DNA from: an uncultured bacterium
GTDB taxonomy: Bacteria > Hydrothermota > UBA3072
Assembly (NCBI GenBank): GCA_964556365.1
Contig: CAZKVT010000001.1
Coordinates: 71,158 to 135,157, forward strand
Length of the DNA: 64,000 nt
Reading direction: 5' to 3'
Every line of letters begins with the position of its first letter. Within the stretch, counting starts at the first letter, position 1. Position numbers and translations under genes: made by a program. Below, piece after piece: positions 3,094-63,334 of this stretch. Below the pieces are notes generated by a model, which saw only the letters and a list, made by a program, of their open reading frames with translations, was not told where the DNA came from and did no database searches.

Positions 3094-3297
3094 TAGGAAG
3101 AATAGGGCAAATCGAGGAAATAGTCAAGGGAAAAATCTTAAGCTCTCCCCACAAACAAAAAACAATATCTCACACAAAGGCACAGAGAACACAAAGAGAA
3201 AAAATTATTAGACCAGGAAACACACTAAATATACGAAACTTTTTATTGCTTTTCCTATTCAACTATTCAACAACCTTTCTGGCTCCTGATTGCTTTT

Positions 3298-45842: not shown

Positions 45843-46607
45843 ATGCGGATAAAAATACAATTCTCACCAGCAAACAATATTTTCAGAATTCCCGTGAATT
45901 ATAACTATCTTGTTCAATCATTCATCTATAACAACATTTCAGCCAAACTATCGGATTTTCTGCATAATAAAGGATACATAGATGGAAAAAGGTCGTTTAA
46001 AATGTTCACTTTCTCAAGGCTTCAGGGAAAATGCAATTACAATAACGAAAGCAAAAGTCTGATCTTTAAAGATAATTTTGAGCTTTGGGTTTCCTCTCCC
46101 GAAAGCGAATTTCTTGAATCGTATGCCACAGAATTACTTAAAAATCCGGAAATAAGACTTGGTAAAAACCAAATATATATAAACTCCATCGAAGTGAGTA
46201 TGACCCCTGCTTTCAAGGAGGAAATACTGATAAAGATGATTTCACCGGTCACTGTTTACAGAACCTTAGAAGACAGAGAAGGAAATAAAAAGACCTACTA
46301 TTTTCATCCCAGGGAATCGGAATTTCCAAAATTAGTAAGCGAAAACATCAAAAGAAAGTACAGGGCTTTATACAAGAACGAACCACCGGACGTTGAACTT
46401 AAAATTATTCCAGAAAAATTGAGTAAAAGGAGTGAGCAAATTATTTTTTATAAAGATAAATATGTAATCAAAGGATGGCTTGGGGTATATAAAATTAAAA
46501 GTCATCCGGAAATGCTAAAACTTGCCTGGGACGCGGGCATCGGCTCCAAAAACCCCCAAGGGTTTGGAATGTTTGAGATAGTGGGGGAGAAAAAAGAAAA
46601 ACTATGA
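45843..46607 (+). CDS. cas6: CRISPR endoribonuclease Cas6
   Basis: 254 aa with the C-terminal glycine-rich loop GIGSKNPQGFGMFEIV. First gene of the cas operon. Confidence 0.85.
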   Translation: MRIKIQFSPANNIFRIPVNYNYLVQSFIYNNISAKLSDFLHNKGYIDGKRSFKMFTFSRLQGKCNYNNESKSLIFKDNFELWVSSPESEFLESYATELLKNPEIRLGKNQIYINSIEVSMTPAFKEEILIKMISPVTVYRTLEDREGNKKTYYFHPRESEFPKLVSENIKRKYRALYKNEPPDVELKIIPEKLSKRSEQIIFYKDKYVIKGWLGVYKIKSHPEMLKLAWDAGIGSKNPQGFGMFEIVGEKKEKL

Positions 46608-46718
46608 ATTTGTGGAATCTCTACCCTAACGGACAAACCGACCAACTGACTAACTATAAAATAAAAGAAAATTTTGACCTTGGCGGTGAAGAATTTTTGA
46701 AATTCCCGAAGGAGGCTT

Positions 46719-48068
46719 ATGATGCATTTCCGAGGCGAGGGTGAAGGGAAGACATTCCTTAATTTTACTGGGAATCCATTTGTTGATGCAGGAATATACG
46801 CAATTGAGGCATACTATGGAAAAGATTTCTCGCTCTTAACCCCGGAAGAACTGGAAAACAAGATAGACGAAATCGTTGAACTTTATATGACCGAGGGCTG
46901 GAAGAAAAATATATATTCCGTTTTCACAGGGAACAGCAAATTTACAAATCCTTCTATTAAGAATAAAAAAGAAAGCTCAGAAAAATATTTAAAAGATTTA
47001 TTAGAAAAGTTTTCCTTACCGGATAATTCAGGAAGTTGTATTGCCTGTGGAAGAAGAAACGCCTTACCCATTAGAAAGAGAGAGGAAATTCCTTTAACAG
47101 GTTCCGGAAAATTAATAAATTTTTTCTCCGGAGCATCAGAAGGTGAACGATATTGTCCTGTATGTACTTTTGCGGTTCAGTTCTTACCACTGTTTCTATA
47201 TTCCCTTGGAAAATATTTCTTGCTTTTTCATTCAGTATCTCACAAGATAATGCAAATCTGGGCAAAAAATGGAATTAAAAATATACGTGAACAAAATTCT
47301 GCTAACAATTATACAGGATGTATGCAAGATGAGTATAAAAATGGAGAAAATGCTTTATTTCACATTGTGGAAGAAACTATAAGAGAACAGGAAGACATAT
47401 TGCCTGAAGAGAATCCTTCTATTACTGCATATATATTCTCGAATTACGGACAAAATCCTCCACCAATGAGAATGATTCATTTGCCAAACAATGTATTTAG
47501 GTTCTTGGTTTATATTCAGAGAATTGATAATGTATCATGGCGAAAAATCGTACATAAAGGATACGGAATTTTAAAGAAAGAAGATGATTATAAATGGAGA
47601 AACAATAGAGTTTATAAGAATTTGCTTGACGGGGTGTCCATAATTAGATTTTTCCTATCAAAAGATAAAAATACAATAGGGAATTGGGAGATTTTCTCCT
47701 ATTACTTAAAGGAGGTGAGAGAAATGGACGAAAAAAGGATAGATGTACTAAAAAAAGTCGGTGATAAGATTGCTAATTATATAGAAAAGAGTGACAATAC
47801 AAAGAGGCTCTTTACATTAGAAACCGCTAAAAGTTACGAAGGGATTCGAAATATTCTTCTAAAAATTACAAAAGATATGATTACAAATGGAATGGATGTG
47901 CCTTTATTTACAACAGATGAATTTCTGAATGACTTGTTCCCGGAAGGCGCATTGAAGTGGAAGGAAACAAGAGATATATTGTTATTCAGAATATATGAAA
48001 AACTATCTGACTACTTAAAGAGTAAAAAAGAAATAATAGAAGAAATAAAAGCAAACGAGGAGATTTAA
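46719..48068 (+). CDS. cas8b: Type I-B large subunit Cas8b (Cst1-like)
   Basis: Zinc-binding pairs CIACGRR...CPVCTFAV as in Cst1/Cas8b. Position between cas6 and cas7. Confidence 0.7.
   Translation: MMHFRGEGEGKTFLNFTGNPFVDAGIYAIEAYYGKDFSLLTPEELENKIDEIVELYMTEGWKKNIYSVFTGNSKFTNPSIKNKKESSEKYLKDLLEKFSLPDNSGSCIACGRRNALPIRKREEIPLTGSGKLINFFSGASEGERYCPVCTFAVQFLPLFLYSLGKYFLLFHSVSHKIMQIWAKNGIKNIREQNSANNYTGCMQDEYKNGENALFHIVEETIREQEDILPEENPSITAYIFSNYGQNPPPMRMIHLPNNVFRFLVYIQRIDNVSWRKIVHKGYGILKKEDDYKWRNNRVYKNLLDGVSIIRFFLSKDKNTIGNWEIFSYYLKEVREMDEKRIDVLKKVGDKIANYIEKSDNTKRLFTLETAKSYEGIRNILLKITKDMITNGMDVPLFTTDEFLNDLFPEGALKWKETRDILLFRIYEKLSDYLKSKKEIIEEIKANEEI
47724..48068 (+). CDS. cas11: Putative Cas11b small subunit from an in-frame internal start within cas8b
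   Basis: AAAGGAGGTGA (47709-47719) lies 8 nt upstream of the in-frame ATG at 47724 and would yield a 114-aa helical C-terminal product. Confidence 0.45.
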   Translation: MDEKRIDVLKKVGDKIANYIEKSDNTKRLFTLETAKSYEGIRNILLKITKDMITNGMDVPLFTTDEFLNDLFPEGALKWKETRDILLFRIYEKLSDYLKSKKEIIEEIKANEEI

Positions 48069-48069
48069 A

Positions 48070-49104
48070 ATGCGCAAAACCATAAATGGATTTATGTTAG
48101 TTGATGCACCATGGTCAGCATTAAACAATGCTGGTATGGATGCAGGCGAAAGAACAGATAATGCAGTGAAGGTCAAAACTGTAAGAAAAGGCAGGGATGT
48201 TTATCCCTATGTTTCTGGTCAGGCAGTAAGATACTGGTGGAGAGAAACACTTGCAAATAAATTTGGATGGAATTTGTCCCCAATAGAAAGAGCGGCAAAA
48301 GTTGCCTACACTGCTGCTAATCCTATTGACTACGACGATGATGATATGTTTGGGTATATGAGGGCTGCAAAAGAAGAAGTTGAAGAAAAGGGGAAAAAGA
48401 AAAAAGTAAATGTTACTGTAACCCGTATTTCCCCGCTAAAAAATTCTCCTTTGTTTTCACTATATCCACAGAATCCAACTAATGACTTTGGGGTAATGGC
48501 AAGACAAACTGAGGGAGCCCCTGTTCCTTACGAACACCAATTTTATTCAACAATTTTTAAAGGAATATTCTCTGTAGATATTGAATGTGCGTGTAAACTC
48601 TATGAAATTGAAAAAACTGGATATAAGAATATGTCTCCAAAACTCATTAATAAGGCAAAAGAAATGGGATTAGAGTATAATGAGGAAGAAAAATTCTGGA
48701 GATTACCTGTTAATATCCGAAGGAAAAGGATAAAAGAGACAATTCTTGTTCTACCATATCTTTCTGGTGGTGCGAAACTCACTGAGCATTTGACAGATGT
48801 TTCACCTAAATTCCTGATTCTGGCAGTGATTGAAGGTGGAAATCATATTTTTATGAATATCGCTGATGAAAATGGAATAAACTTTGATGCTCTAAACAAA
48901 GTAATAGAAGATTATAAAGAAATTATCCTTTCTGATATATTCATAAGCAAAAGAGAGGGATTTTTTGATGAAATGGATAAGGAACTATCTGCATTTGCGA
49001 AAAAGAAATGGGAATATAATGGAAAGAACATTGAAGTAAAAACAAACTCAATAAATAATACGGTGTTAGAATTTACAAAAATTCTGGATGAGTTTATTGT
49101 ATGA
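48070..49104 (+). CDS. cas7: Type I-B Cas7 (Cst2/DevR family)
   Basis: NAGMDAGERTDNAVKVKTVRKG..YPYVSGQAVRYWWRE is typical of Cst2/DevR. Confidence 0.85.
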   Translation: MRKTINGFMLVDAPWSALNNAGMDAGERTDNAVKVKTVRKGRDVYPYVSGQAVRYWWRETLANKFGWNLSPIERAAKVAYTAANPIDYDDDDMFGYMRAAKEEVEEKGKKKKVNVTVTRISPLKNSPLFSLYPQNPTNDFGVMARQTEGAPVPYEHQFYSTIFKGIFSVDIECACKLYEIEKTGYKNMSPKLINKAKEMGLEYNEEEKFWRLPVNIRRKRIKETILVLPYLSGGAKLTEHLTDVSPKFLILAVIEGGNHIFMNIADENGINFDALNKVIEDYKEIILSDIFISKREGFFDEMDKELSAFAKKKWEYNGKNIEVKTNSINNTVLEFTKILDEFIV

Positions 49105-49116
49105 AGGAAGTATAAA

Positions 49117-49749
49117 ATGGCATCTTTTTTTAGAGTAAAAATTACCGGGTGGACGGCATCGTTTAGATACCCCATTTTTATTTATGGCTATCAACCTACT
49201 TTACCTGTGCCTCCTTACTCCACGATTTATGGTTTAATTTCAGCAGCAGTAGGAAAATGGGTAACCCCGGATGATATTGATGTAAAATATGTTTTCAAAA
49301 GTACCGCAAAGGGAATAAATCTTGAAAAAATCTATGAATGGGAAATTGGCAAAATCAGCAAATCAAATGTGATAAAACGAGAATTTCTCCTTAATCCAGA
49401 ATTATATTTATATGTTAATCAGAAAGAAATAGCTGATTGTTTTAAGAAACCGTTCTATCCTTTACTACTTGGCAGAAGCACAGAACTCGCCTTTGTTGAA
49501 GAGATAAAAAAAGTCAATCTGATTCAAAAAGAGAATTGCAAGGTTGGAGGTATAATTCTTCCTTTTCCACCAATACGTCCGCTTAACGGAACAATTCAGG
49601 CATTACCGACCCACTTTTCCAAAACTTTCCCACGTGAACCCATTGGAACCCGACCATGGTTCCTTGTAAAAGACTTTCAGAATTATGAAGGAAAAGGCTG
49701 GGTTGATGAAGAAAAGGGATGGGGAGTGATAATTGAGAAGGAGAAATGA
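49117..49749 (+). CDS. cas5: Type I-B Cas5 (Cas5t)
   Basis: FRVKITGWTASFRYP...PTLPVPPYSTIYGLISAAVG...LLLGRS. Confidence 0.85.
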   Translation: MASFFRVKITGWTASFRYPIFIYGYQPTLPVPPYSTIYGLISAAVGKWVTPDDIDVKYVFKSTAKGINLEKIYEWEIGKISKSNVIKREFLLNPELYLYVNQKEIADCFKKPFYPLLLGRSTELAFVEEIKKVNLIQKENCKVGGIILPFPPIRPLNGTIQALPTHFSKTFPREPIGTRPWFLVKDFQNYEGKGWVDEEKGWGVIIEKEK

Positions 49750-49750
49750 G
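49705..49750 (+). repeat. 46-bp direct repeat, copy A (authentic cas5 3' end)
   Basis: GATGAAGAAAAGGGATGGGGAGTGATAATTGAGAAGGAGAAATGAG. 43/46 identical to 50857-50902. Confidence 0.9.
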
Positions 49751-49791
49751 GGGAACAAGAACTTCTTCGTATTTATTATGAGGGCAGACAA

Positions 49792-50853
49792 ATGATAAGA
49801 AAGACCATATCTAAAAAAACCACTTATCAGGGTTTGATTGATAGGATTGCTGAAATTCTTAAGCAGGCAAGGACTAAAGTGCTAAAAGAAATAAACAGAA
49901 CACAAGTTTTGGCATACTGGGAGATCGGCCGTGAAATTGTGGAATTTGAGCAGAAAGGTAAGGCACGAGCAGCATATGGAAAGGGATTATTAAAAAAACT
50001 TTCGGCAGACATGACTGCCAAATTTGGAAAAGGATTTTCACGTTCTAATCTTCAAAATATGCGACTTTTTTACCTTGCTTACCAAAAATGCCAGACGGTG
50101 TCTGGCAAATCTCAATTTGAACCCATATTATCCTGGTCTCACTATTGCGAATTGTTGAAGACAGAAGAACCCCTTGCCCGCTCTTTTTATGAGAAAGAGG
50201 CATCTCAGAATAACTGGTCTGTAAGAGAATTGAAAAGGCAAATTAACTCTATGCTTTTTGAACGATTGGCTTTGAGCAAGGACACCAGAACCGTAATGCG
50301 GATGGCAAAGAAGGGGCAAATTATAGAGAAACCAGAAGATGCTATTAAAGACCCTTATATTCTGGAATTTCTTAATCTTAAAGAAGAAACCTCCTATACT
50401 GAAAGTGATTTGGAACAGGCAGTAATAGATAAACTGGAGTATTTCCTTCTGGAGATTGGTAAGGGTTTTAGTTTTGTTGCCCGTCAGAAAAGGATTACCA
50501 TTGCTAACAGACATTATTATATTGACCTTGTCTTTTATAATCGTATTCTGAAATGTTTTATGTTAATAGACCTGAAGACTGGCGAACTTGACCATTCTGA
50601 CATTGGACAGATGAACTTTTATCTGAATTACTTCAAGGAAAATGAAAAAAGAGAAGAAGAAAACGACCCTATTGGTCTTATTCTTTGTGCTAAAAGAGAC
50701 GATATATTTGCAAAATATGTTTTAGGAGGATTGAACAACAAAGTTTTTGCCTCTAAATATAAATTAGCATTGCCCTCGGAGCAGGAAATAAAACGGAAAC
50801 TAAAATCAATCCCTTTATCATTAGATATGAAACATAAAAAGGGGAAAGGCTGA
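49792..50853 (+). CDS. DUF1016/YhcG-family PD-(D/E)xK nuclease
   Basis: YhcG-like N-terminus (VLAYWEIGREIVEFEQ...YG..LLK.LS..L), SWSHY, and a C-terminal nuclease core YIDLVFYN...LIDLKTGEL. Confidence 0.75.
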   Translation: MIRKTISKKTTYQGLIDRIAEILKQARTKVLKEINRTQVLAYWEIGREIVEFEQKGKARAAYGKGLLKKLSADMTAKFGKGFSRSNLQNMRLFYLAYQKCQTVSGKSQFEPILSWSHYCELLKTEEPLARSFYEKEASQNNWSVRELKRQINSMLFERLALSKDTRTVMRMAKKGQIIEKPEDAIKDPYILEFLNLKEETSYTESDLEQAVIDKLEYFLLEIGKGFSFVARQKRITIANRHYYIDLVFYNRILKCFMLIDLKTGELDHSDIGQMNFYLNYFKENEKREEENDPIGLILCAKRDDIFAKYVLGGLNNKVFASKYKLALPSEQEIKRKLKSIPLSLDMKHKKGKG

Positions 50854-50856
50854 ATA

Positions 50857-50902
50857 GATGAAGAAAAAGGTTGGGGAGTGATAATTGAGGAGGAGAAATG
50901 AG
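50857..50902 (+). repeat. 46-bp direct repeat, copy B (relic cas5 tail fused by ATGA to the cas10-like start)
   Basis: GATGAAGAAAAAGGTTGGGGAGTGATAATTGAGGAGGAGAAATGAG. Would encode DEEKGWGVIIEEEK* versus cas5 DEEKGWGVIIEKEK*. Confidence 0.9.
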
Positions 50903-52910
50903 CGATAAAAATAAATTTGTTCCAGAATTGCATGATATTGGGAAGCTTGTAGATAGACAAGCTCTCAATCAGGCAGGTATTCAAATTACTGGTCATACCT
51001 TTCACGATTTTGACTTTTCACAAATTGGCGTTTCACAACCATTCTCTCCAAGTTGGTACGCTCAATATTTGGAAAAAGACGAGTTAAGACCACCTGACAA
51101 AGACTTGTTGAACTCTCAAGAAGCAAAAGAATACATTCCCGACCCACAAATCCGTGCTGATGTTTTAATCACAAAAATGGCAGACGGTATATCAGCGGCA
51201 ATATCTCGACTTGAGTTGTATGGAAAGCGTATTCATAGAGGTCAAGTTAGTGAAGGTGTCCACAAACTTTGGAATGCTAAATTCTACGAGGAGAAAAAAC
51301 AAGGAGGGCAGTATTGGTCACCTTTTACTGATACTGAAAGTTTCAAGGGGATGTTCCAGTACATTGATTCATGTTTAAGTTATCAAGACTTTTTCAGAAA
51401 ATACGGGGAATATCTCAGCCTCACTCCAGAGGATAAAACCGCCCCCGGTAATATCGTAAGTCTTTATACCCATTTGGAACTTGTTGGTAAAATCTATCGC
51501 ACTTTAAAGAAACATTCACTACTTCAATTACAAAATGCACAAAACATTCTTCTTTACAACAATCAACCAATAAAAAGTGTCCAAGAAGCTTCTGGACACA
51601 TCGACCCTAAAGAAGATCAAGGTAAGTGGATATTTCGGATAGTAAATTGTAACATTGGATTTCCCCAATCTTTCTCTCGCCTCCAAGATCTTAACGTCTT
51701 TAGAAAAAGGGCTGATTTGATTAAAGCCTTTTCAGAAGATGAAAACACGAAAGATTATGTTTTATTCTTTACAGATGATTTAATTTGTCTGTTTATCCCG
51801 AAAGATGGCGAAGTTAGAATCCAAGAGTTATTAGACTCGTTTCTTGAAGCAAGATTTATAATTGACTACAAAGAAATGGAGGCAGAGTTGAATCTCCTAA
51901 CCTCTTCTATGAAAAAAGCTTACGAAAAGTTTCACTCTTTATCAACAACCAGACATCTAAAACTTTATGAAAAAAGAGCAAACTTTGATTTTTCTCCAGA
52001 AATTCGTCCACATCTTTGTGATTCTTGTCAGATGAAACACGGTAAAGAAAGGGTTAAAGATCAGATTTATGAGTATTTATGTGATACTTGCTACGATATT
52101 CGCGAAATGGGTGACCCTGCTCGTGAATATGCTAAATGGGAAGAAAAAGGATTAAGAGCAGGATGGATGAAAATCACACTTGACCAAGAGCAGTTGTTAA
52201 GGACACTTTATAGACTGTATGAAGAATATGTCGATACTCATTCAGCAATGCAAAGTATAAGCAATAGTGATAAAACAGTGTTAAAAGATTCATTTAGACC
52301 TCTTGCTGTTCAGATGGATTTTGTAAAGGATTACAAGTTGCTATTAAAGGCTTTCAATGACCAGATATACGAAATAAAAGATAAAGAAGGAAATCCATTT
52401 TTCATCGAAGAAAATTTTCTTTATCCAATTGAAGGATATTATGAATTTGGTATATTCAAGGTTTATTCAGGTGAGGATATTTTGAAAGTCCTTGACTTAT
52501 TCTATAATCTCTTGAAGGAGTATTTCCCTGAATGCTTGAAAGATTCTCCTATCAAATTGTCAATAAGTCTTGCTCAGGTGAAATATCCTTATCAAGAGCA
52601 TTGGCGATTTTTGTCAATGCCGAAAAATGTTATTAACATACAAAGCCTTGGAAATTCAAAACTTAGTATAGATATCTCTCAATACAAATTGCTCAGAGAG
52701 AAAATTAGAAGAGAAGACACCAAATTGAGCCACTTTTTACATCGTTTGGCTGATATTGAAATTGAGACAAAAAGCGATATGACTGTGATGCTTGAAATAT
52801 TTAACAACCGAAAGAGATTTCCGGTTTTATTGGAATTGACTCAAAGTGAGTTATCAGTTAATCAAATACTTGACTTTTACAAATTAACTCGTGAGGTGGC
52901 TATTCCATGA
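50898..52910 (+). CDS. cas10: Cas10-like large subunit (HD domain; degenerate cyclase motif SGED)
   Basis: HD motifs ELHDIGK / GHTFHD / KMADGIS. Csm1-like NIVSLYTHLELV. Palm1-like VLFFTDDLICLF. CxxC-x17-CxxC (C374-C398). Palm2-like WMKITLDQ ... VYSGEDIL ... KLSISLAQVKYP. Confidence 0.7.
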   Translation: MSDKNKFVPELHDIGKLVDRQALNQAGIQITGHTFHDFDFSQIGVSQPFSPSWYAQYLEKDELRPPDKDLLNSQEAKEYIPDPQIRADVLITKMADGISAAISRLELYGKRIHRGQVSEGVHKLWNAKFYEEKKQGGQYWSPFTDTESFKGMFQYIDSCLSYQDFFRKYGEYLSLTPEDKTAPGNIVSLYTHLELVGKIYRTLKKHSLLQLQNAQNILLYNNQPIKSVQEASGHIDPKEDQGKWIFRIVNCNIGFPQSFSRLQDLNVFRKRADLIKAFSEDENTKDYVLFFTDDLICLFIPKDGEVRIQELLDSFLEARFIIDYKEMEAELNLLTSSMKKAYEKFHSLSTTRHLKLYEKRANFDFSPEIRPHLCDSCQMKHGKERVKDQIYEYLCDTCYDIREMGDPAREYAKWEEKGLRAGWMKITLDQEQLLRTLYRLYEEYVDTHSAMQSISNSDKTVLKDSFRPLAVQMDFVKDYKLLLKAFNDQIYEIKDKEGNPFFIEENFLYPIEGYYEFGIFKVYSGEDILKVLDLFYNLLKEYFPECLKDSPIKLSISLAQVKYPYQEHWRFLSMPKNVINIQSLGNSKLSIDISQYKLLREKIRREDTKLSHFLHRLADIEIETKSDMTVMLEIFNNRKRFPVLLELTQSELSVNQILDFYKLTREVAIP

Positions 52911-53563
52911 ACGAATCAAATAAGACCTTCCTTCATTTTGAAGTGAATACAGAAGCCATAGCAATTGGAGAGAGGATTAAAGGGGGAACTTACCGACCTT
53001 GCATAGAAACCATACCAACTTCAACTTTAAAAGGCTCTTTTAGAGATTATTTTGGCTTGACAGATACTCTAGCAATTGGTTTTTTTAGAGAAGGGACATA
53101 CGAGAAAGACACTTTTACTTATGCTCCCTTTGACACCTTCTTAGGAACTGCTAAACTCCCTATTTCTCTGGAGTACCTCAAACCAGCAAATGGCACAAAA
53201 GCAGTTATAGCAGATATTTATGCAGTGAAAATGGGAACAACAGAGTTTCTTACCAAAGCTGCTCCAACAGAAATTTCTCTTGGTGCTTTAAAGAGCAAAG
53301 GATTTGGCAGATGTGAATTAAGATACATCGGGGAAGTCAAACCTTATTTGAAAATTGGATACCTAAAAGGACGTTTTATTGAAGAAGAATGTGCCGCTTT
53401 TGGAATCGCTAAAGTTATTAAGCCATGTTATGGCTATCTATTTTACCCAACATCAGAGGTGAGTGGCGTGTATAAGAGAGCATTATTTGAAGGAAGCATA
53501 ATTGAAGGACCTGAAATCTTGATCAAGGAGGAATATAAATATGATTACAAAAACATTGGATGA
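52907..53563 (+). CDS. Small RAMP protein, Cas5-family-like (Csm4/Cmr3/Csx10 position)
   Basis: IPTSTLKGSFRDYFG N-terminal RAMP motif and glycine loop GALKSKGFGRCEL. ATGA overlap with the cas10-like gene. Confidence 0.55.
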   Translation: MNESNKTFLHFEVNTEAIAIGERIKGGTYRPCIETIPTSTLKGSFRDYFGLTDTLAIGFFREGTYEKDTFTYAPFDTFLGTAKLPISLEYLKPANGTKAVIADIYAVKMGTTEFLTKAAPTEISLGALKSKGFGRCELRYIGEVKPYLKIGYLKGRFIEEECAAFGIAKVIKPCYGYLFYPTSEVSGVYKRALFEGSIIEGPEILIKEEYKYDYKNIG

Positions 53564-54134
53564 TGTGATGAGGCGGATGATGAACGACTCTTATATATTT
53601 AGCCCACCGTATGATAGAAATGCAAAATCTGCTATACCTTTACTATTTGAAACGGAGGAGTGGAAACAACTTAAAGAAGCCTTCGAGGGAAAAGATAAAA
53701 ACTCTTTTAACTCCATTGTGGATAATCAATGCCAAAAACTTCAACAAAAAGAGCAAAATGCAAACCAGTGGAGAAAGAGAAGGATAAGAGATACAATTAA
53801 ATTAGGAAAAGCATTGAAAAACGCTTATGATCAAAAGCCTTACATTTTAGAACAGATGTTTGATAAACTCGATTCATTTGGAATTATTGAGTGCAAATTG
53901 CCCAACACGGAGGATTATGGTAAGGTCATTGAAAATCACAATCGCTCAACAGTGGAACAGTACTTCCTTTCTAAAATAGATAGAGCAAGAGGTTATCAGA
54001 AACCTGCACTTCGAAAAACATTAGAATATGTAAAGGAATTATACGCGATGAAGCTTGATGTACTTGAGATAGCATTCTTTATTAGGAAACTAAATTCTTT
54101 AACCCAGTTTATGGAGGTGATAAAAGATGAATAG
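53541..54134 (+). CDS. Putative Cas11-like small subunit (helical, by position)
   Basis: 197 aa, charged and helix-prone, SD AAGGAGG. Sits between the two RAMP genes as Csm2/Cmr5 do. I could not recognise a diagnostic motif. Confidence 0.35.
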   Translation: MITKTLDDVMRRMMNDSYIFSPPYDRNAKSAIPLLFETEEWKQLKEAFEGKDKNSFNSIVDNQCQKLQQKEQNANQWRKRRIRDTIKLGKALKNAYDQKPYILEQMFDKLDSFGIIECKLPNTEDYGKVIENHNRSTVEQYFLSKIDRARGYQKPALRKTLEYVKELYAMKLDVLEIAFFIRKLNSLTQFMEVIKDE

Positions 54135-54975
54135 CATTGGAAAAATGGATAAATTGCCAGAAAGCAAGCAACATGGGATAGTGACGGTGCTTCAGGTTCC
54201 ACTGAAGATAACCGTTCAGGAAGGCTCGTTCCTACACATCGGAGGTAGTTCTTCGCCACTTACAGAGAAGAAGGCCCCCGTCTTTTCTGTAGATGGAAAG
54301 CCAGCGATACCTGCATCCAGCTTTAAGGGGGCATTCAGATATCAAGTAGAGCAACTGCTAATCGCTAAAAAAGACGAGCTCAAATTAAAACTTGGGACAA
54401 CAGATGATAAGCTAATTAGACCGTGTATCCCCACACCAAGACCTTCAAGAGCCGAACAAGAATTACTGAACTTAGGATACAGGAAACACTGTGCGATAAA
54501 AGTCGAGGAAGATAAAGTTGAGATACCCAAGGAGAATAATAAACTTATTGGACTTTGCCCTGTTTGCTATCTCTTTGGTGCCACAGGTTTAATGGGGTTC
54601 CTTCGCATACCCAACTTTTGGCCTGAGACGGGAGAATACAGAATAAACCAGACAAGTATTAGGATAGATCGTGAAAGCGGAACAGCAGCTACGGGGGCAA
54701 TTGTTACGGGTGAACAGGTGAAGCCAGGAACAGTGTTTAAAGGAATATTAGAAATTATTTCTCAACAAAGAAATTTCCAATTTGGCAAAGCGAGAGAGAT
54801 CGGAGAAACAAAAGTTGACCTTTGGTTGGATGGCATTGCTTTAAAACCGATAGAAGAAGCACAACTCTTATTGATTAATGAGATCCTAATTCCTGCTCTG
54901 AATAACATAACCGTTCTCGGAGGTCAAAAGAGTAAAGGTGCGGGTAAGGTAAAAATTGAAATAGAAAATTCGTAA
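54127..54975 (+). CDS. Cas7-family RAMP (Csm3/Cmr4-like), the only backbone subunit of the cassette
   Basis: FLHIGGSSSP, KPAIPASSFKGAFRYQVEQLL, CPVCYLFGATGLMGF, C-terminal glycine loop LGGQKSKGAGKVKIE. Confidence 0.7.
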   Translation: MNSIGKMDKLPESKQHGIVTVLQVPLKITVQEGSFLHIGGSSSPLTEKKAPVFSVDGKPAIPASSFKGAFRYQVEQLLIAKKDELKLKLGTTDDKLIRPCIPTPRPSRAEQELLNLGYRKHCAIKVEEDKVEIPKENNKLIGLCPVCYLFGATGLMGFLRIPNFWPETGEYRINQTSIRIDRESGTAATGAIVTGEQVKPGTVFKGILEIISQQRNFQFGKAREIGETKVDLWLDGIALKPIEEAQLLLINEILIPALNNITVLGGQKSKGAGKVKIEIENS

Positions 54976-54982
54976 GATTTCT

Positions 54983-57196
54983 ATGTTTTTTGCCAAACCT
55001 GACGAATCCTTAAGCGACCATACAGAGAATACATTAAAAGTGTTTTCTTCCTTGAAAGAAGGTTATCAAGAAATTCCGGAATTATGTAATGTTCCTCAAT
55101 TCTGGAATAATTTATTTTATGCGATTTTCTTACACGATTTTGGAAAGATAGCAAGTGGCTTTCAAGAAGAACTAAAAACTGGTAAAAGATGGAATTATAG
55201 ACACGAAATTTTATCTGCAGGTTTTGTATCCGCTCTTGATGTGCCGGAGAAAGATAAAAACGCAATAGCTCTTGCTATTATAACACACCATAAGGATATA
55301 AAGGAACTAAGAGAAAAATATGCTACATATCCAAAAGAAAACCCCGGTTATCAAAGATTTCAAGAAAAACTAAAGGAACTAAACTTAAACGAATCAAACA
55401 ACCTTATTGATAATATAAAGAATTTTAGCTCAAAATATCTTGGAACGAAATTAACAAACTATCATTTCATTAATACTTATGAAGAATTGACAGATGTCTA
55501 CAGCAAATATGTATTACCTTATTATAGAGCATACAAATCAGAAGAATTGACGCCTCTTCACAGAAACTACGGCATTTTTATGAAAGGATTTCTTACCGCC
55601 GCCGACCATCTTGCTTCCGCGGGAGAATACGAAATAAAAAAAACAGTTAAGGAAATCAAAGATTATATAAAATTCAAACAGTTAAATACTGTTCAAAAGC
55701 AAGCAAGTAAATATAAAGGAGATATGTTTATTGTTTCTCCCACAGGAAGTGGAAAAACCGAAGCGGCATTGTTCTGGGCGCATAATAATCAGAACCCAGT
55801 TAGCTCCAAAAGGATCTTCTATATACTGCCTTATACCGCAAGTATCAACTATATGTATAAAAGATTTATTAAGCTTTTTGGAAACGACGAACTTGTCGCG
55901 GTTTTACATGGTAAATCTTCTTATTTTCTTTACAGGTTTTTCACAGAAGAAAGAGGATATATTAACTACAAAGATGCTAAAATAAGGGTAAAGGAATACC
56001 AGAGCTTAGCGAAAAAGATTTATAAACCATATAAAGTTATGACTCCCTTTCAAATTATAAAAGCTTTTTTTAGCCTTAAAGGATTTGAACGAAACATTTC
56101 CGAAATGGCAGGGGGTTTATTTATCTTTGATGAGATTCATTCCTACGATCCACATACTACAGCTCTTATTCTTCAGATTGCGAAATTCATAAAAGAAGAG
56201 TTAAACGGAAAACTGTTGTTTATGACAGCTACTATGCCTGAGTTCTTAAAGAATAATTTTCAGAAAGAACTTCAAATTTCTCAGGAAATAAGGATGAAGG
56301 AATCAGAGCTAAGGAACTTTACTCGACATAAGGTTAAGATTATTGAAGGCAATATTATAGATAATATTACGCTTATCAAAAATGATATTAAAAAAGGTAA
56401 GAAAGTACTTATTGTTATAAATACAGTAAAACAAGCACAGGATATTTTTCGAAATTTAATCGGTTCAACACCAAACTCCGTCCTCCTTCATAGCCGATTC
56501 ACTCTTAAAGATAGGGAAATAACAGAATCATCACTCAATAACAAAAACCTTCTTGTTGGAACTCAGGTAATTGAAGTTTCTCTAGATATAGATTATGATG
56601 TACTATATTCGGAACCTGCTCCTATTGATGCTTTACTACAGCGATTTGGAAGAGTTAACAGACGAGGGAAAAAGGGTATCTCACCTATTTATATTTTTTC
56701 GGAGGGAAGCGGAGTCGACGAAAGCAAATGGTCAATTTATGATTTAGCAAGAACGAAAAGGAGTATAGCTGCTTTAAAAAAGATCGATGTGCTTCAAGAA
56801 TCAAAAATCCAAGAAATTGTTAATGGAGTTTATAAAGAAGGATATTCGGAAAAAGAATTAAAACTCTTTAAAGATACTTCTGAAAACTTTTATAAATTCT
56901 ACCACAGTAATGTACCCTTCATAGATGCACAGAAAAAGGAAAGTGATTTTTATAATCTTTTCAAATCAGTAGAAGTAATTCCTGTTAAATTTTGGGACCA
57001 ATATAAAACCGAGTTAGAGAACAAAAGGTACTTCGAAGCTATGAAATACACTCTACCAATATCTCTTGGGCAATATGCTTATCTGAAAAATAAAGACAGG
57101 GTAAGTAATACAGATAGAGGAACAATCGTTGATGCCGAATATGACAGTAAATTTGGTTTACTCATAAGCGAACAAACATCTGCAACTTTTGTATGA
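54983..57196 (+). CDS. cas3: Cas3 HD nuclease-helicase fusion
   Basis: N-terminal HD (SDHTENT, FLHDFGK, RHEILS, ITHHKD). SF2 helicase motifs SPTGSGKTEAALFWA, FDEIHSYD, MTATMP. Confidence 0.9.
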   Translation: MFFAKPDESLSDHTENTLKVFSSLKEGYQEIPELCNVPQFWNNLFYAIFLHDFGKIASGFQEELKTGKRWNYRHEILSAGFVSALDVPEKDKNAIALAIITHHKDIKELREKYATYPKENPGYQRFQEKLKELNLNESNNLIDNIKNFSSKYLGTKLTNYHFINTYEELTDVYSKYVLPYYRAYKSEELTPLHRNYGIFMKGFLTAADHLASAGEYEIKKTVKEIKDYIKFKQLNTVQKQASKYKGDMFIVSPTGSGKTEAALFWAHNNQNPVSSKRIFYILPYTASINYMYKRFIKLFGNDELVAVLHGKSSYFLYRFFTEERGYINYKDAKIRVKEYQSLAKKIYKPYKVMTPFQIIKAFFSLKGFERNISEMAGGLFIFDEIHSYDPHTTALILQIAKFIKEELNGKLLFMTATMPEFLKNNFQKELQISQEIRMKESELRNFTRHKVKIIEGNIIDNITLIKNDIKKGKKVLIVINTVKQAQDIFRNLIGSTPNSVLLHSRFTLKDREITESSLNNKNLLVGTQVIEVSLDIDYDVLYSEPAPIDALLQRFGRVNRRGKKGISPIYIFSEGSGVDESKWSIYDLARTKRSIAALKKIDVLQESKIQEIVNGVYKEGYSEKELKLFKDTSENFYKFYHSNVPFIDAQKKESDFYNLFKSVEVIPVKFWDQYKTELENKRYFEAMKYTLPISLGQYAYLKNKDRVSNTDRGTIVDAEYDSKFGLLISEQTSATFV

Positions 57197-57247
57197 TGAA
57201 ACAATGCTAAATAACGGACATCAAATTTTATTTCATTTCAAGAAAAA

Positions 57248-57760
57248 ATGCATCAGAATAATTCAATAAATTTTATCACTCCTTCCCTCATAAACGCCTA
57301 TTGTATATGTAAACGTAAAGCGTGGTTTCAGAGCAGAAGTATAAATCCGCAACAGGATTATTCAAATGTCTCCATAGGAAGGACTATTGATGAAACTTCT
57401 TATAAGAGACAGAAAAAGTCTATCACAATCGATAATATGAAAATCGATTTAATCGAGGAATCGGAAGGAAATCCAATGATATGTGAAATCAAAAAATCAT
57501 CCGCCGGGAAAAAGGCAGCAATAATGCAGATTGCCTACTACCTTTACAGATTGAAAGAAATGGGCATTGATGCGAAAGGAAGACTGCTTTTGCCAAAAGA
57601 AAGAAAAAGAGAGACCGTGGAACTCAACGCGGAATTAGAAGAAGAAATAAAAAAATTGGTGAAGGAAACTAAAGAACTGATTTCACTCGACAAGCCCCCA
57701 GAATTAAAAAAGACAAAATTTTGTAGAAAATGCGCGTATTTTGAATTCTGTTTTACTTAG
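57248..57760 (+). CDS. cas4: Cas4 RecB-like nuclease
   Basis: N-terminal Cys (YCICKRKAWF) plus C-terminal CRKCAYFEFC cluster. EIKKS nuclease motif. Confidence 0.85.
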   Translation: MHQNNSINFITPSLINAYCICKRKAWFQSRSINPQQDYSNVSIGRTIDETSYKRQKKSITIDNMKIDLIEESEGNPMICEIKKSSAGKKAAIMQIAYYLYRLKEMGIDAKGRLLLPKERKRETVELNAELEEEIKKLVKETKELISLDKPPELKKTKFCRKCAYFEFCFT

Positions 57761-57768
57761 GAGGTGAT

Positions 57769-58761
57769 ATGAGAAGTTTATACGTAACATCAAACGGAAC
57801 ATTGCATAGAAGACAGAATACTCTGTATTTTGAAACGGAAGATGGTAAAAGGAAATATGTTCCTGTAGAGAATACACAAGAAATACTTATATTCGGAGAA
57901 GTTTCAATCAATAAAAAACTTATTGATTTTATTTCACAACAAGGGATTTTACTACATTTTTTTAATTATTATGGGTACTATTCGGGAACGTTTTATCCCA
58001 GAGAACATAATAATTCCGGTTGTACTATATTAATGCAAGCTACCTTTTATCAGGATAATGAAAAAAGACTTGAACTCGCAAGAAAATTTGTTGAAGGAGC
58101 AATTGAAAGTATTCTTAAAGTGCTTGGATATTACAATAACAGAGGCTCTGACCTTAAACAAAGAATTGAAAATATTGAAAGGATAAAGGAAAATATTTGC
58201 AAAGTTAACAATATCCAGGAACTCATGGGAAATGAAGGCAATTGTCGAGATATTTATTATGGGGCATTCGACGCAATACTGAACAATGAAGATTTTTCCT
58301 TTGATAGGCGTTCAAGACAACCGCCAAAGAATAGACTCAATGCCTTAATAAGTTTCGGAAATTCTCTGATTTATATCGTGACTTTAAGCGAGATTTACAA
58401 AACTCATCTTGACCCAAGAATCGGATTTTTACATTCTACTAATTTCAGGAATTTTAGTCTGAACCTCGACCTTGCTGAAATATTTAAACCTATCATAACA
58501 GACAGAATAATATTTACATTGATAAATAAGAAAATGATAAATAAAAATGATTTTGATTCAAAGATGAAAGGAACTTACCTTAGTGAAAAAGGAAGGGAAA
58601 CATATCTCAGGGAATTTGACAATAGGATGGAACAGACCATAAAGCATCCCAATTTAAAACGTAATGTCTCATACCGAAGATTAATACGTCTTGAAGCATA
58701 TAAAATTGAAAAACACCTTCTTGGTGATAAGAAGTATAGCCCGTGGGTAGCAAGATGGTGA
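57769..58761 (+). CDS. cas1: Cas1 integrase
   Basis: 330 aa, LYVTSNGTLHRRQNTLYF..., NALISFGNSLIY, DPRIGFLH. Confidence 0.9.
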   Translation: MRSLYVTSNGTLHRRQNTLYFETEDGKRKYVPVENTQEILIFGEVSINKKLIDFISQQGILLHFFNYYGYYSGTFYPREHNNSGCTILMQATFYQDNEKRLELARKFVEGAIESILKVLGYYNNRGSDLKQRIENIERIKENICKVNNIQELMGNEGNCRDIYYGAFDAILNNEDFSFDRRSRQPPKNRLNALISFGNSLIYIVTLSEIYKTHLDPRIGFLHSTNFRNFSLNLDLAEIFKPIITDRIIFTLINKKMINKNDFDSKMKGTYLSEKGRETYLREFDNRMEQTIKHPNLKRNVSYRRLIRLEAYKIEKHLLGDKKYSPWVARW

Positions 58762-58768
58762 CGAAACC

Positions 58769-59032
58769 ATGTATGTAATTCTCGTTTATGATATAGAAGA
58801 AAAAAGGGTGGCAAAAGTACTAAAAACTTGCCGAAAATATCTCAACTGGATACAGAATTCTGTATTTGAAGGAGAAATAACAAAAGCCCGATTGGAGAAG
58901 TTAAAGGCTGCTTTGAAAGAAATTATAAATAAAGAAAAAGATTCGGTTGTTTTTTATAAAATGAGAACCACCAAATATTTTAAGAAAGAAATAATGGGTA
59001 AAGAGAAAAGTGAAATATCTTCATTTATTTAA
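58769..59032 (+). CDS. cas2: Cas2
   Basis: 87 aa, MYVILVYDI...RVAKVLKTCRKYLNWIQNSVFEGEIT. Confidence 0.9.
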   Translation: MYVILVYDIEEKRVAKVLKTCRKYLNWIQNSVFEGEITKARLEKLKAALKEIINKEKDSVVFYKMRTTKYFKKEIMGKEKSEISSFI

Positions 59033-62100: not shown

Positions 62101-63334
62101 TGTTTTCTTCCAATCCTACCTATGAGGAATTGAAATTCGGTATGGTTATTGGACATCAGAAAGGCAATTCGTCTTCCAATCCTACCTATGAGGAATTGAA
62201 ATTTAGAAGGGAGAACTATCCAGGCTTTCAAATACATTCTTCCAATCCTACCTATGAGGAATTGAAATCTGTCTTCTTGTAGGTTATCCTGTATTGTTTT
62301 CCTTCTTCCAATCCTACCTATGAGGAATTGAAATCTTTATGCACGAGGTCGGAAGGGTTAATCTCTCTGTCACTTCCAATCCTACCTATGAGGAATTGAA
62401 ATTGTGCATAATGCCTTATACCAGAATCCTTCTCCCTTTCTTCCAATCCTACCTATGAGGAATTGAAATACACAAAAACCTCTCCTCACCGTTTACGATT
62501 ATTTTCTTCTTCCAATCCTACCTATGAGGAATTGAAATAAATCTTTTGGTATAGAACAAGTTAGAAATGGATTACTTCCAATCCTACCTATGAGGAATTG
62601 AAATGTAAATAATTCGTAAGAACAACAACTGGCTTAAGGGCTTCCAATCCTACCTATGAGGAATTGAAATCCATTTTTGCTTATCTTCTTCACTGTTTTT
62701 AGGGTCTACTTCCAATCCTACCTATGAGGAATTGAAATATAATTACATGGGAGAAAAGGGGGATATGTTATCAATACTTCCAATCCTACCTATGAGGAAT
62801 TGAAATGAATATAAGGCTCATCTGTCGATTCCTGTTCTTGTGCTTCCAATCCTACCTATGAGGAATTGAAATAGCTTTTAGCTCTTCGTTTGGGATTTAG
62901 ATACGCGCCTCTTCCAATCCTACCTATGAGGAATTGAAATCCCGGAACCTGCCGGTAAATGAAAATCATTAAGCAACTTCCAATCCTACCTATGAGGAAT
63001 TGAAATATGAAACAAATATATAGCCCAGACGCGGAGAGAGCGCTTCCAATCCTACCTATGAGGAATTGAAATATTATATGGTAGCTTCCTTATGGCAAAA
63101 ATTGGTTCTTCCAATCCTACCTATGAGGAATTGAAATCCGGGGATTTAAACGAGGGTAAGAAGTGTAATCTGCTTCCAATCCTACCTATGAGGAATTGAA
63201 ATATGGCTTGTGGATTGGTGGTGAACTGTGAATAGATGCTTCCAATCCTACCTATGAGGAATTGAAATCCTGCCTGGAAGGTCAAGAGACTTATAGCGGA
63301 ACTCCTTCCAATCCTACCTATGAGGAGTCGACTT
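59196..63334 (+). CRISPR. CRISPR array: 63 x 30-nt repeats (CTTCCAATCCTACCTATGAGGAATTGAAAT), 62 spacers of about 35-39 nt
   Basis: Counted by hand; mean period about 66 nt. The repeat 3' end ATTGAAAT equals a canonical 8-nt crRNA 5' tag. The last repeat (63305-63334) is degenerate in its final 8 nt. Leader and cas2 lie at the 5' side. Confidence 0.97.

Follow-up and report, generated by a model that had tools for sequence, protein, structure and literature searches.

A DUF1016/YhcG nuclease gene lies between two genes of a CRISPR–cas operon in the 64,000-nucleotide stretch of DNA analysed here (the window), bracketed by two copies of the 3′ tail of the preceding gene, cas5. The tail is duplicated, related loci carry the empty site, the nuclease motif is intact and the insert contains no recombinase. 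We propose that a minimal DUF1016 cassette was inserted in the 3′ end of cas5t with long target duplication, a reading that we consider probable and in which the locus is a new example of a known, poorly understood mode of restriction-type gene movement. The DUF1016 protein is more likely to be a selfish or independent defence nuclease (of the candidate system PDC-S02) than a CRISPR accessory because it is absent from related cas loci, has widespread homologs in unrelated contexts and matches the PDC-S02 profile. Insertions inside CRISPR–cas operons for which filled and empty sites can both be read at base resolution are rare, and this one shows a foreign nuclease gene wedged between coupled cas genes with both frames kept.

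A type I-B operon with a type III-F module

The host operon is a composite, a type I-B system with an embedded type III-F effector module, and all of its features described below are on the forward (+) strand. The type I-B (Tneap) gene set is complete. It begins with cas6 (45843–46607; Pfam Cas6 domains and TIGR01877), followed by cas8b1/cst1 (46719–48068; TIGR01908, E = 4e-49), cas7/cst2 (48070–49104; TIGR02585, E = 1e-54) and an intact cas5t, encoding the type I-B Cas5b (49117–49749; TIGR01895, E = 5.5e-40, and the open reading frame list). It ends with cas3 (HD plus helicase; 54983–57196; TIGR01587 and TIGR01596), the adaptation genes cas4, cas1 and cas2 (57248–59032; assigned from the open reading frames, tblastn to related loci and the Pfam labels of homologs there) and a CRISPR array of 62 identical 30-nt repeats, CTTCCAATCCTACCTATGAGGAATTGAAAT (59196–63268; 62 exact matches; TRF).

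Embedded in this set are cas10f, encoding the type III-F large subunit with an HD domain (50898–52910; PADLOC Cas10a/Cas10f, 1.8e-117), the type III-F cas5 (52907–53563; PADLOC Cas5_IIIf, 3.3e-57), cas11f (53541–54134; PADLOC Cas11f, 7.8e-45) and the type III-F cas7 (54127–54975; PADLOC Cas7_IIIf, 6.1e-81; Pfam RAMPs). The module thus comprises Cas10f, Cas5, Cas11f and one Cas7 and lacks its own cas6 and adaptation genes; its four-gene layout is the same as that of the exemplar Tlet_0097-0100 (PMC8036902). A preliminary description of this DNA had correctly noted a cas10-like gene, but its membership of a type III-F module within a type I-B operon went unrecognised. The reading frames are all unbroken and the array is large and uniform. 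No terminator-like site was found on the + strand between cas5 and cas10f; counts in the promoter and terminator scan are at chance level and support no more than the absence of obvious polarity.

The 3′ tail of cas5 is present twice

A repeat search of the window places the cas5 tail at both 49690–49750 and 50842–50902, a 61-nt repeat with 54/61 identity and a spacing of 1152. It consists of a 46-nt core (49705–49750 versus 50857–50902; 43/46 identity), extended by 15 nt upstream. Three differences fall in the core: AAG to AAA, GGA to GGT and AAG to GAG, the last changing K to E. The core, its identity and these three differences had been reported in the preliminary description and hold on the sequence and the open reading frame list; what does not hold is the 46-bp extent, as the repeat runs for 61 nt. 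Because it extends those 15 nt further upstream, the DUF1016 stop codon falls inside the downstream copy, where a TGG of cas5 corresponds to the TGA that ends DUF1016.

The upstream copy is the live tail of cas5, made up of the last 57 coding nucleotides and the stop (TGA, 49747–49749), and reads GKGWVDEEKGWGVIIEKEK before that stop. The downstream copy is a non-coding relic, in frame with DUF1016: it contains the DUF1016 stop (50851–50853), then reads IDEEKGWGVIIEEEK to a stop of its own, and is contiguous with a cas10f 5′ end resembling that of the related locus L039 described below. Translated on its own, the second tail copy gives DEEKGWGVIIEEEK and a stop, and this TGA (50899–50901) overlaps the ATG of the cas10-like gene (50898–50900), an ATGA overlap already seen in the preliminary description and borne out here. 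A Shine–Dalgarno motif and the ATGA stop/start overlap, GAGGAGGAG (50887–50901), are thereby kept 5′ of cas10f, where they probably serve its translation; the same layout occurs at the L039 empty site (GAGGGGGAGAAATGA) and in a further related locus, L015.

The similarity of the two flanks is well above background. Their local-alignment score is 43.5, compared with 10.0 ± 1.1 (maximum, 14.5) in 200 shuffles, about 30 standard deviations, and the tail motif occurs exactly twice in 64 kb, with an expectation of 0. The copies have diverged by 7/61, which equals the divergence of either copy from the tails of cas5 genes that are about 80% identical in protein. A simple recent duplication in situ is therefore insufficient: the event must be old or have drawn on two alleles.

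The insert carries a single nuclease gene

Between the two 61-nt copies lies a segment (49751–50841) composed of a 41-nt leader (49751–49791) and most of the DUF1016 open reading frame. If the true duplication were only 46–49 nt, the cassette would reach the stop codon at 50853 and positions 50842–50853 would represent microhomology with the target. DUF1016 homologs end in KRKKGR or KRKKGGDIK directly before their stops. The insert of approximately 1.1 kb has one credible open reading frame, DUF1016 on the + strand (49792–50853; stop TGA at 50851–50853), preceded by GAGGG (49780–49784), a Shine–Dalgarno-like element 7 nt 5′ of the ATG that may act in its translation. When aligned with the sequence preceding three close homologs, the leader resembles it solely over the roughly 20 nt adjoining the ATG.

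The gene encodes 353 amino acids with DUF1016_N and YhcG_C PD-(D/E)xK nuclease domains (Pfam and PADLOC), both Pfam domains exceeding their gathering thresholds (PF17761: E = 9e-48, 162.3 bits, cut-off 32.8; PF06250: E = 5e-57, 192.6 bits, cut-off 32.5). The catalytic residues Glu221, Asp245, Asp260 and Lys262 (E221, D245, D260, K262) show no variation among 10 or among 30 aligned homologs and fit the YhcG PD-(D/E)xK motif, E...D...(D/E)-x-K (PMC1189080). Residues 8–342 match the PADLOC PDC-S02 profile PDLC04807 (E = 5.6e-144), PDC systems being candidate defence systems only; a literature search found no experimental paper on PDC-S02. The protein also matches the PADLOC profile PD_DExK (PDLC01464; E = 2.6e-43), which is labelled 'CAS-I..VI; associated', so a functional CRISPR link has to be weighed. 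A sequence search of the PDB returned nothing for DUF1016 and only noise for Cas10f, and the AF2 model of DUF1016 has a pLDDT of 44 because its 30-sequence alignment is too shallow and its members too similar.

Neither transposase- or integrase-like domains (Pfam) nor terminal inverted repeats at the insert ends (repeat search) were detected. A classical DNA transposon or insertion sequence was therefore rejected, with neither a transposase nor inverted repeats, and a duplication of 46–61 nt rather than less than about 15 bp. A site-specific integrative element at a gene 3′ end was likewise rejected, there being no integrase or recombinase and DUF1016 being the sole gene in the insert. The composition of the segment, proposed earlier as a check, proved uninformative: in GC content (0.363), GC3 and codon-usage divergence, DUF1016 cannot be told apart from the other cas genes, so there is no signature of recent import.

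Related loci preserve the empty site

In L039, L040 and L041, cas5 (7001–7633) overlaps the cas10-like gene, cas10f (7630–9633), by ATGA, without DUF1016. The order in these loci is cas6–cas8b1–cas7–cas5–cas10-like–...–cas3–cas4, their Cas5, present on at least 24 contigs, is 81% identical to that of the window, and they carry the tail once, flanked upstream by cas5 and downstream by cas10f. Over its first 48 nt, cas10f matches between these loci and the window at 43/48 positions. With a cas5 nucleotide identity of 76% and dS > 1, the empty-site locus is a diverged relative, not a sister strain.

The arrangement is general among relatives. The tail abuts or overlaps the start of the next gene in all eight distinct cas5 relatives, and DUF1016 is absent from all seven distinct cas10f relatives. 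A tblastn search of L001–L016 and L033–L041 gave no DUF1016 matches, that is, none in about 15 distinct related loci. The comparison of filled and empty loci suggested in the preliminary description thus finds L039–L041 empty and every related locus without the gene. The empty-site relative confirms the sequence of events proposed there, in which cas5 would originally have been coupled directly to the cas10-like gene and DUF1016 would have entered later.

We propose that the target was an operon in which cas5t was translationally coupled to cas10f through the ATGA overlap, and that the incoming cassette consisted of one DUF1016/YhcG gene with its 41-nt leader, the 3′ end lying at the gene's stop codon or a few bases from it. 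The event would have duplicated 46–61 nt of the target ('insertion with long target duplication'), such that the upstream copy completes cas5 while the downstream, non-coding relic would still set a GGAGG ribosome-binding site and the ATGA start context 5′ of cas10f. The junction may have formed by break repair or template switching, aided by an 11/12-nt microhomology, GGRAAAGGCTG, between the cassette 3′ end and cas5. DUF1016 is probably co-transcribed with the cas genes and is predicted to be a Mg-dependent DNA endonuclease, acting selfishly or as a stand-alone single-gene defence and not as a CRISPR subunit.

One allele or two

The two tails could also derive from two alleles, as the preliminary description had suggested for the relic, a possibility that we entertain only tentatively. 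A block from cas6 to cas5 plus DUF1016 would derive from one I-B locus in which DUF1016 already followed cas5. Homology-facilitated illegitimate recombination would have joined it to a second, related locus, or else a circle bearing the tail and DUF1016 would have entered by a Campbell-type single crossover. The relic would then represent the cas5 tail native to the resident locus and the live tail an import, making this a variant of the target-duplication reading.

Several features agree with such a history. At the 7 sites at which the copies differ, L039 is matched by the relic at 5 and by the live tail at 2; the relic–L039, live–L039 and live–relic distances are 8/58, 11/58 and 7/58, respectively. 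The relic runs directly into the L039-like 5′ end of cas10f, of which the first ~17 codons are L039-like and the remainder L033-like (alignment, sliding identity), with the rest of Cas10f only 36% identical to that of L039. Judged by these and similar alignments, the locus is clearly a mosaic: cas5 is 96–100% identical to a further relative, L038, over its first 150 nt and 71–95% over the remainder in 60-nt windows, and the upstream genes have a dS of 0.2–0.5 to L038 and 1.3–2.8 to L039, with a dS of 0.36 to L039 for cas11f. The microhomology at the right junction would also suit illegitimate joining. Against this, 61 nt with 7–15 differences lack the statistical power to separate one allele from two, the matches to L039 (50/58 versus 47/58) not being significantly different; the live tail is not notably L038-like (15/58 differences); no cas5–DUF1016 donor locus occurs among the ~15 relatives; and the tail copies remain each other's nearest sequence. 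The earlier suggestion is compatible with the 5/7 matches to the empty-site allele and with the mosaic locus, but the tail is too short to decide it.

Selfish, independent or accessory

DUF1016 might instead be a recruited CRISPR accessory nuclease for the I-B or III-F effector, kept for better immunity, which we judge unlikely. It could, for example, supply an extra DNase to a III-F system that lost cyclic-oligoadenylate signalling, cyclase motifs and effectors being described as absent from type III-F (PMC11229360). The gene has the orientation of its neighbours and is apparently transcribed together with them, its reading frame is intact with conserved catalytic residues, and it is fixed on every contig of the population; besides the PADLOC cas-associated PD_DExK match, a PD-DExK 'possible nuclease' cluster is found among type III accessory candidates (PMC6546367). 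An accessory role is opposed by the absence of DUF1016 from all ~15 distinct related I-B, III-F and composite loci, and by the lack of a CARF, SAVED or other sensor domain in a Pfam search of the protein.

The wider distribution of the family points the same way. DUF1016 homologs with 70–84% identity number in the thousands, across Bacteria and Archaea and in unrelated contexts; the closest adjoin hsdS, aro or MNT/HEPN genes, not cas genes, and in L025 an hsdS (Methylase_S) gene is found two genes downstream of one close homolog. Such conservation across phyla implies that DUF1016 functions independently of its neighbours. Of the 'accessory or selfish role' offered in the preliminary description, the selfish or independent half is thus favoured by 0/~15 related cas loci, unrelated contexts and PDC-S02, and the accessory half is not.

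A very improbable alternative is that DUF1016 is ancestral and was lost elsewhere by recombination between the tail copies, the empty site being a secondary deletion. Direct repeats of 61 nt can mediate precise excision, and one empty-site lineage alone gives no polarity. Set against these points are ~15 distinct relatives without the gene, including some with quite different modules downstream of cas5, in which the tail is joined to the next start; the nearest DUF1016 homologs, which occur in unrelated taxa and contexts; and the duplicated gene tail itself, which has no plausible origin other than insertion.

All contigs with an identical Cas5 (11), Cas10f (9) or DUF1016 (11) protein in the collection searched have the same gene arrangement, and exact-protein look-ups with Cas5 and Cas10f for presence/absence polymorphism within the population returned filled sites only. 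Eight independently assembled contigs (JGI and Logan) are base-identical to the window over 49601–51000, across both junctions, so the duplication is no assembly artefact, an eventuality against which the preliminary description had warned. Together with the shuffle scores, and with copies of 61 nt and 89% identity that would not mislead an assembler, they leave artefact or chance similarity a negligible probability.

DUF1016 cassettes at other sites

DUF1016 relatives also occur on viral contigs, of which repeated scans of a viral collection gave the same 25. On one (L052), DUF1016 is bracketed by a ~110-nt direct repeat with 91% identity; on another (L067), by a 34-nt repeat (32/34) in which the opening 11 codons of the radC-like gene that follows are duplicated. 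By comparison, 0/165 other open reading frames of at least 200 amino acids in the same loci are bracketed by such repeats. Counting against the insertion reading, a flanking repeat is absent from most of the distinct DUF1016 loci examined (~19/22). The L052 cassette (1802–2873) recurs in L051 at another position, with 92% identity, and terminates exactly at the DUF1016 stop codon; it has been relocated, and older, decayed copies lie close by. The repeats in L052 and L067 hint that the cassette may be recurrently mobile.

In a more speculative and rather doubtful extension, DUF1016/YhcG genes would be self-mobilising nuclease cassettes: a break or staggered nicks made by the nuclease would enable a unit of leader plus ORF, bounded by its stop, to copy itself elsewhere while generating target duplications of 30–110 nt. 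Behind this stand three independent bracketed cassettes (in the window, L052 and L067), the L052/L051 relocation and extreme conservation across phyla. Since both neighbours would be restored by the duplicated gene end or start, coupled operons could be invaded without inactivation, and DUF1016 could then enter CRISPR–cas, type I restriction–modification and conjugation operons. The bracketing repeats offer a handle on whether DUF1016 genes move themselves.

Comparison with known systems

Insertion with long target duplication was reportedly described for restriction–modification genes by Nobusato et al. in 2000. Long, variable target duplications without a mobility gene are known for type I–IV restriction genes (Furuta, Abe and Kobayashi 2010, PMC2853133), including a Haemophilus influenzae case with 46-bp repeats that overlap gene 3′ ends and are 44/46 identical between copies, and a solitary mcrA that was accepted although the screen required both R and M genes. 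The preliminary description had recognised an inserted segment, which stands, but not that long target duplication is a described hallmark of restriction-gene insertions. Like those inserts, the present one has direct repeats of more than 30 bp, is short (<20 kb), lacks a mobility gene and has its repeat once at the empty site. The classical cases carry a methyltransferase or a recognised type IV enzyme, whereas the cargo here is DUF1016/YhcG, a candidate nuclease with a restriction-endonuclease-like fold, no methyltransferase and restriction activity that is predicted at most. The target also differs, being the translationally coupled junction of two genes in a CRISPR–cas operon; the copies have diverged further (54/61), and the empty site comes from a diverged relative, not from a strain of the same species. 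The phenomenon is thereby extended from restriction–modification genes to the widespread, uncharacterised DUF1016/YhcG (PDC-S02) family and to a CRISPR target.

Single DUF1016 genes have been found between the hsdR, hsdM and hsdS core genes of type I restriction–modification operons (PMC9881135) and between traU and traW of a Rickettsia conjugative element, where the arrangement was termed piggybacking (PMC4316617). The present gene is likewise a single co-oriented gene wedged between core operon genes; those reports describe neither flanking target duplications nor an empty site, and the host here is CRISPR–cas.

The duplicated tail resembles the outcome of integration at gene 3′ ends, with the target intact through a second 3′ end and a displaced relic, mostly synonymous in its differences, at the other end. 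Elements such as e14 and phage 21 in icd, and those in tRNA 3′ ends, carry a replacement 3′ end of the target gene. They have a site-specific integrase and measure tens of kilobases, unlike the 1.1-kb insert described here, which has no recombinase. Free-standing homing endonuclease genes of phages are solitary, lie between host genes, are dispensable and sporadic, and their homing leaves no target duplication. DUF1016 is similarly a solitary nuclease gene between two genes and sporadic among relatives, but here the target is duplicated, and any site-specific cleavage of empty alleles by DUF1016 would be hypothetical.

The CRISPR-associated PD-DExK candidates (Shah et al. 2018, PMC6546367; PDLC01464) share with the present gene a profile match and a position inside a cas operon. 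The difference lies in conservation with the cas locus family, which for DUF1016 amounts to 0/~15 relatives, and the comparison carries a caution: a nuclease inside a cas operon need not be a CRISPR accessory.

Duplication of the cas5 tail around DUF1016

In the window, ORF listing and direct reading of 49500-51100 place a 353-aa DUF1016 ORF (49792-50853) between cas5 (49117-49749) and a 670-aa ORF, cas10f (50898-52910). The preliminary description reported that the 46 nt at 49705-49750 are found again at 50857-50902 with 3 differences, the TGA of the second copy overlapping the ATG of the 670-aa ORF. This proved exact, and a repeat search lengthens the repeat to 61 nt (live tail, 49690-49750; relic, 50842-50902; 54/61 identical, spacing 1152). 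Because the repeat reaches 61 nt, the DUF1016 stop codon (50851-50853) is part of the downstream copy and aligns with a cas5 TGG codon; relic and DUF1016 ORF share a reading frame. Flank-versus-flank alignment scores 43.5 compared with 10.0 ± 1.1 for shuffles, and the window contains exactly two occurrences of the tail motif, against an expectation of 0.

An identical DUF1016 protein is found on 11 contigs of the collection. The eight of these compared at the DNA level, which represent different samples (JGI and Logan assemblies), all match the window base for base over 49601-51000, excluding the assembly artefact considered at the outset. Gene order is unchanged on all 11 contigs with the exact Cas5 and on all nine with the exact 670-aa protein. 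The insert is an intact predicted nuclease gene, co-oriented with the operon and fixed in the population, and disrupts no reading frame.

A composite I-B/III-F host operon

Type I-B (Tneap) genes—cas6, cas8b1/cst1, cas7/cst2 and cas5t, then cas3, cas4, cas1 and cas2 (NCBIfam, Pfam)—are joined by four genes, lying between DUF1016 and cas3, that form a type III-F effector module (PADLOC profiles Cas10f, 1.8e-117; Cas5_IIIf, 3.3e-57; Cas11f, 7.8e-45; Cas7_IIIf, 6.1e-81), and by a CRISPR array after cas2 (59196-63268; 62 identical, perfect 30-nt repeats). What was described as a cas operon thus combines I-B and III-F components, and its large, uniform array is consistent with a system recently active despite the insertion. 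In its four genes the module is laid out like the exemplar Tlet_0097-0100 (PMC8036902). Type III-F systems generally keep the HD nuclease and lack cyclase motifs and effectors (PMC11229360), and most III-F loci are missing an array of their own (PMC12669027).

The module (cas10f-cas5f-cas11f-cas7f) sits inside type I operons of varying architecture (window 45843-59032; database contigs L001, L003, L035/L036, L037 and L039-L041): in the window and L039 it lies within the cas5t-cas3 interval; in L001, L035 and L037 it comes 3′ of cas3 and ahead of cas6b or Cascade genes; and in L003 it follows a cas6 gene. Embedded modules are often linked through overlapping stop/start codons. These arrangements suggest that III-F is a guest module using the Cas6, array and adaptation genes of its type I host. 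In TM1802-type I-B loci with the module 3′ of cas3, a conserved leader of about 58 nt, (GAC)GACATTTTGCTTGGCGGCT...CCAAAAGGAG, lies ahead of cas10f (L001 7942-8000; L002 7940-7997; L033 553-610; L034 20-79); this leader, which may be a regulatory element, is not present in the window or L039.

An empty site in related loci

Relatives were gathered by a genome scan with Cas10f and a metagenome scan with Cas5, tracing the closest proteins to contigs. Contigs L039, L040 and L041, with a Cas5 81% identical to that of the window and present on at least 24 contigs, have the order cas6-(TPR)-cas8b1-cas7-cas5-cas10f-cas5f-cas11f-cas7f-cas3-cas4, with DUF1016 absent. Their cas5 (7001-7633) and cas10f (7630-9633) share an ATGA overlap (L039 junction, ...GGTTGGGGAGTCATAATAGAGGGGGAGAAATGAAAGATAAAAATAAATTTGTTCCAGAA...), and at the start of cas10f L039 and the window agree at 43/48 positions. 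This junction is the predicted ancestral arrangement, and the empty site bears out the earlier proposal that cas5 was once coupled directly to the cas10-like gene, DUF1016 arriving later. The relic keeps GAGGAGGAG and ATGA ahead of cas10f, as at the empty site, and would persist as the translation-initiation region of cas10f.

The proposed comparison of loci with and without DUF1016 also found the gene in none of eight distinct cas5 relatives (L006, L007, L008, L009/10, L011/12, L015, L038, L039-41) and none of seven distinct cas10f relatives (L001, L002, L003, L033, L034, L035/36, L037). In all eight cas5 relatives the next gene starts directly at, or within, the cas5 tail; which gene that is varies among them. 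Judged from these comparisons, insertion of DUF1016, not its loss, is the parsimonious polarity.

Related I-B loci carry differing RAMP modules directly 3′ of cas5t: a cas7f-like gene only, then cas3 (L009 2535-5702; L010); three RAMP genes plus a 1018-aa protein (L038 3309-10201); or a RAMP beginning (M)xEFKVTFKTLTPLWTG in L006, L007, L008 and L015 (362 aa in L015, 424 aa in L007, incomplete in L006 and L008, where the contig ends). Given this variety, the cas5t tail seems to be a recurrent swap point for type III-like modules. In L011 (4462-6450) and L012 (6594-8405) the post-cas5 RAMP is shortened to 115 aa and followed by two genes of about 255 aa, which may represent another insertion at the cas5 junction.

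Mosaicism and the origin of the two tails

There are 7/61 mismatches between live tail and relic. Across the first 58 nt, distances are 7 for live-relic, 8 for relic-L039, 11 for live-L039 and 8 for both live-L007 and live-L015; L039 agrees with the relic at 5/7 differing sites. The TGG>TGA change of the relic occurs in 0/8 relatives compared, L038 sharing the A at that position. The relic runs directly into an L039-like cas10f 5′ end: Cas10f is a chimera, L039-like in its first ~17 codons (MSDKNKFVPELHDIGKLVD) and otherwise of the L033/L034/L001 lineage, the N-termini of which read MNDRSFIAEL. Overall identity is 82-86% to that lineage and 36% to L039, and the switch occurs within the conserved HD-motif region (window 50898-50950; L039 7630-7690; L033 611-670). 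The cas5 gene is likewise mosaic, with its first ~150 nt 96-100% identical to L038 (2678-3322) and the following 60-nt windows 71-95%; from about nt 480 on, L006/L007 are equally close or closer. Genes upstream show dS of 0.2-0.5 to L038 and >1.2 to L039, compared with 0.36 to L039 for cas11f. The mosaic cas5, chimeric Cas10f and contrasting dS values together indicate frequent recombination among these loci.

Such recombination lends plausibility to the suggestion in the preliminary description that the relic derives from a different allele. We regard as possible, if tentative, that the relic is the resident tail and that the live tail was imported along with the cassette (short leader plus DUF1016 ORF), as the match of the relic to L039 and the adjoining L039-like cas10f start would favour; however, 61 nt are too few to separate this from the alternative of an old in-situ duplication of the tail that diverged afterwards. 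The imported-tail reading has an analogue in e14 at icd, where the resident 3′ end is displaced and the element brings a replacement.

The DUF1016/YhcG gene

The inserted ORF contains DUF1016_N and YhcG_C domains, with E221/D245/D260-x-K262 invariant among homologues, and matches the PADLOC candidate single-gene defence system PDC-S02 (5.6e-144) as well as a cas-'associated' PD_DExK profile (2.6e-43). There are at least 8000 homologues at E<=1e-20; the top 120, 69-84% identical, come from Bacteria and Archaea (for example, Bathyarchaeota, Zixibacteria, Edwardsbacteria and Euryarchaeota). Three close homologues lie in mutually unrelated neighbourhoods—near hsdS, beside chorismate synthase and beside an MNT/HEPN pair—and relatives are also present in viral and prophage contigs. 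YhcG/COG4804 was previously predicted to be a PD-(D/E)xK nuclease lacking a conserved neighbourhood (PMC1189080).

The suggested comparison of insert with flanks found no difference in GC content or codon usage between DUF1016 and the operon. A GAGGG motif lies 7 nt upstream of its ATG, and no terminator-like site was found on the plus strand between DUF1016 and its neighbours. Two minus-strand terminator-like hairpins within the coding region (50107-50089 and 50022-50001) may be chance, as the total count for the region is at shuffle level.

None of the related cas loci carries DUF1016, and its conservation across phyla holds whatever its neighbours; we therefore infer a DNA endonuclease that probably serves itself or functions as an independent defence gene (PDC-S02). 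Recruitment as a CRISPR accessory nuclease, with which a III-F system without signalling effectors and the cas-associated profile match would fit, is improbable in view of that same distribution.

Bracketed cassettes and mode of insertion

Two viral contigs carry further bracketed cassettes. In L052, a direct repeat of ~110 nt (1695-1801 and 2933-3043; 91% identical), including a terminator-like hairpin belonging to the upstream unit, surrounds ORF 1885-2874. The cassette (1802-2873) comprises an 83-nt leader with a perfect TTGAAA-17-TATAAT promoter-like site and the ORF, ending at the stop codon; it is found again in contig L051 at a different position (92% identity), and decayed DUF1016 fragments lie in L052 at 505-580 and 607-665. 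L051 has an intact DUF1016 gene (2617-3606), then a partial copy (~3690-4031), with internal repeats (2793-2844 versus 3865-3916) 81% identical, which suggests one hotspot repeatedly invaded. In L067, a 34-nt repeat (1329-1362 and 2586-2619; 32/34) surrounds ORF 1468-2580 and corresponds to codons 1-11 of the radC-like gene that follows (2587-3264), its second copy lying upstream of the cassette; with the 5′ end of the downstream gene duplicated, L067 is the mirror image of the window.

Long flanking repeats thus occur at 3 of ~22 distinct DUF1016 loci and at 0/165 other ORFs >=200 aa in the same loci; without the ascertained window, the counts are 2/21 versus 0/165 (rough p ~0.01, hypergeometric). 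A transposon was rejected: the 46-61-nt duplication far exceeds that of a transposon, and the insert contains neither a recombinase nor terminal inverted repeats. Homologues end in ...KRKKGR* or ...KRKKGGDIK*, so the ...KHKKGKG* of the window is probably largely native. The cassette would then end at the DUF1016 stop codon and the true duplication would be 46-49 nt, GGGAAAGGCTGA and GGAAAAGGCTGG representing a putative 11/12-nt junction microhomology. Self-mobilization of DUF1016 cassettes through long target duplication is possible but unlikely.

The arrangement in the window fits the pattern that Furuta, Abe and Kobayashi (PMC2853133) defined as 'insertion with long target duplication', in which variable direct repeats >30 bp, occurring once in the empty-site genome, surround type I-IV restriction genes with no mobility gene; examples include a solitary mcrA gene and Haemophilus influenzae cases with 46-bp repeats overlapping gene 3′ ends (44/46 between copies). 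YhcG genes are found between core genes of type I R-M operons and are enriched beside phase-variable defence genes (PMC9881135), and one piggybacks within a conjugation operon (PMC4316617). Precedents thus exist both for long target duplication at restriction-type genes and for the placement of DUF1016 inside operons; new here is their combination, a DUF1016 cassette that occupies a translationally coupled junction within a CRISPR-cas operon and has an empty site available, together with the two further bracketed cassettes.
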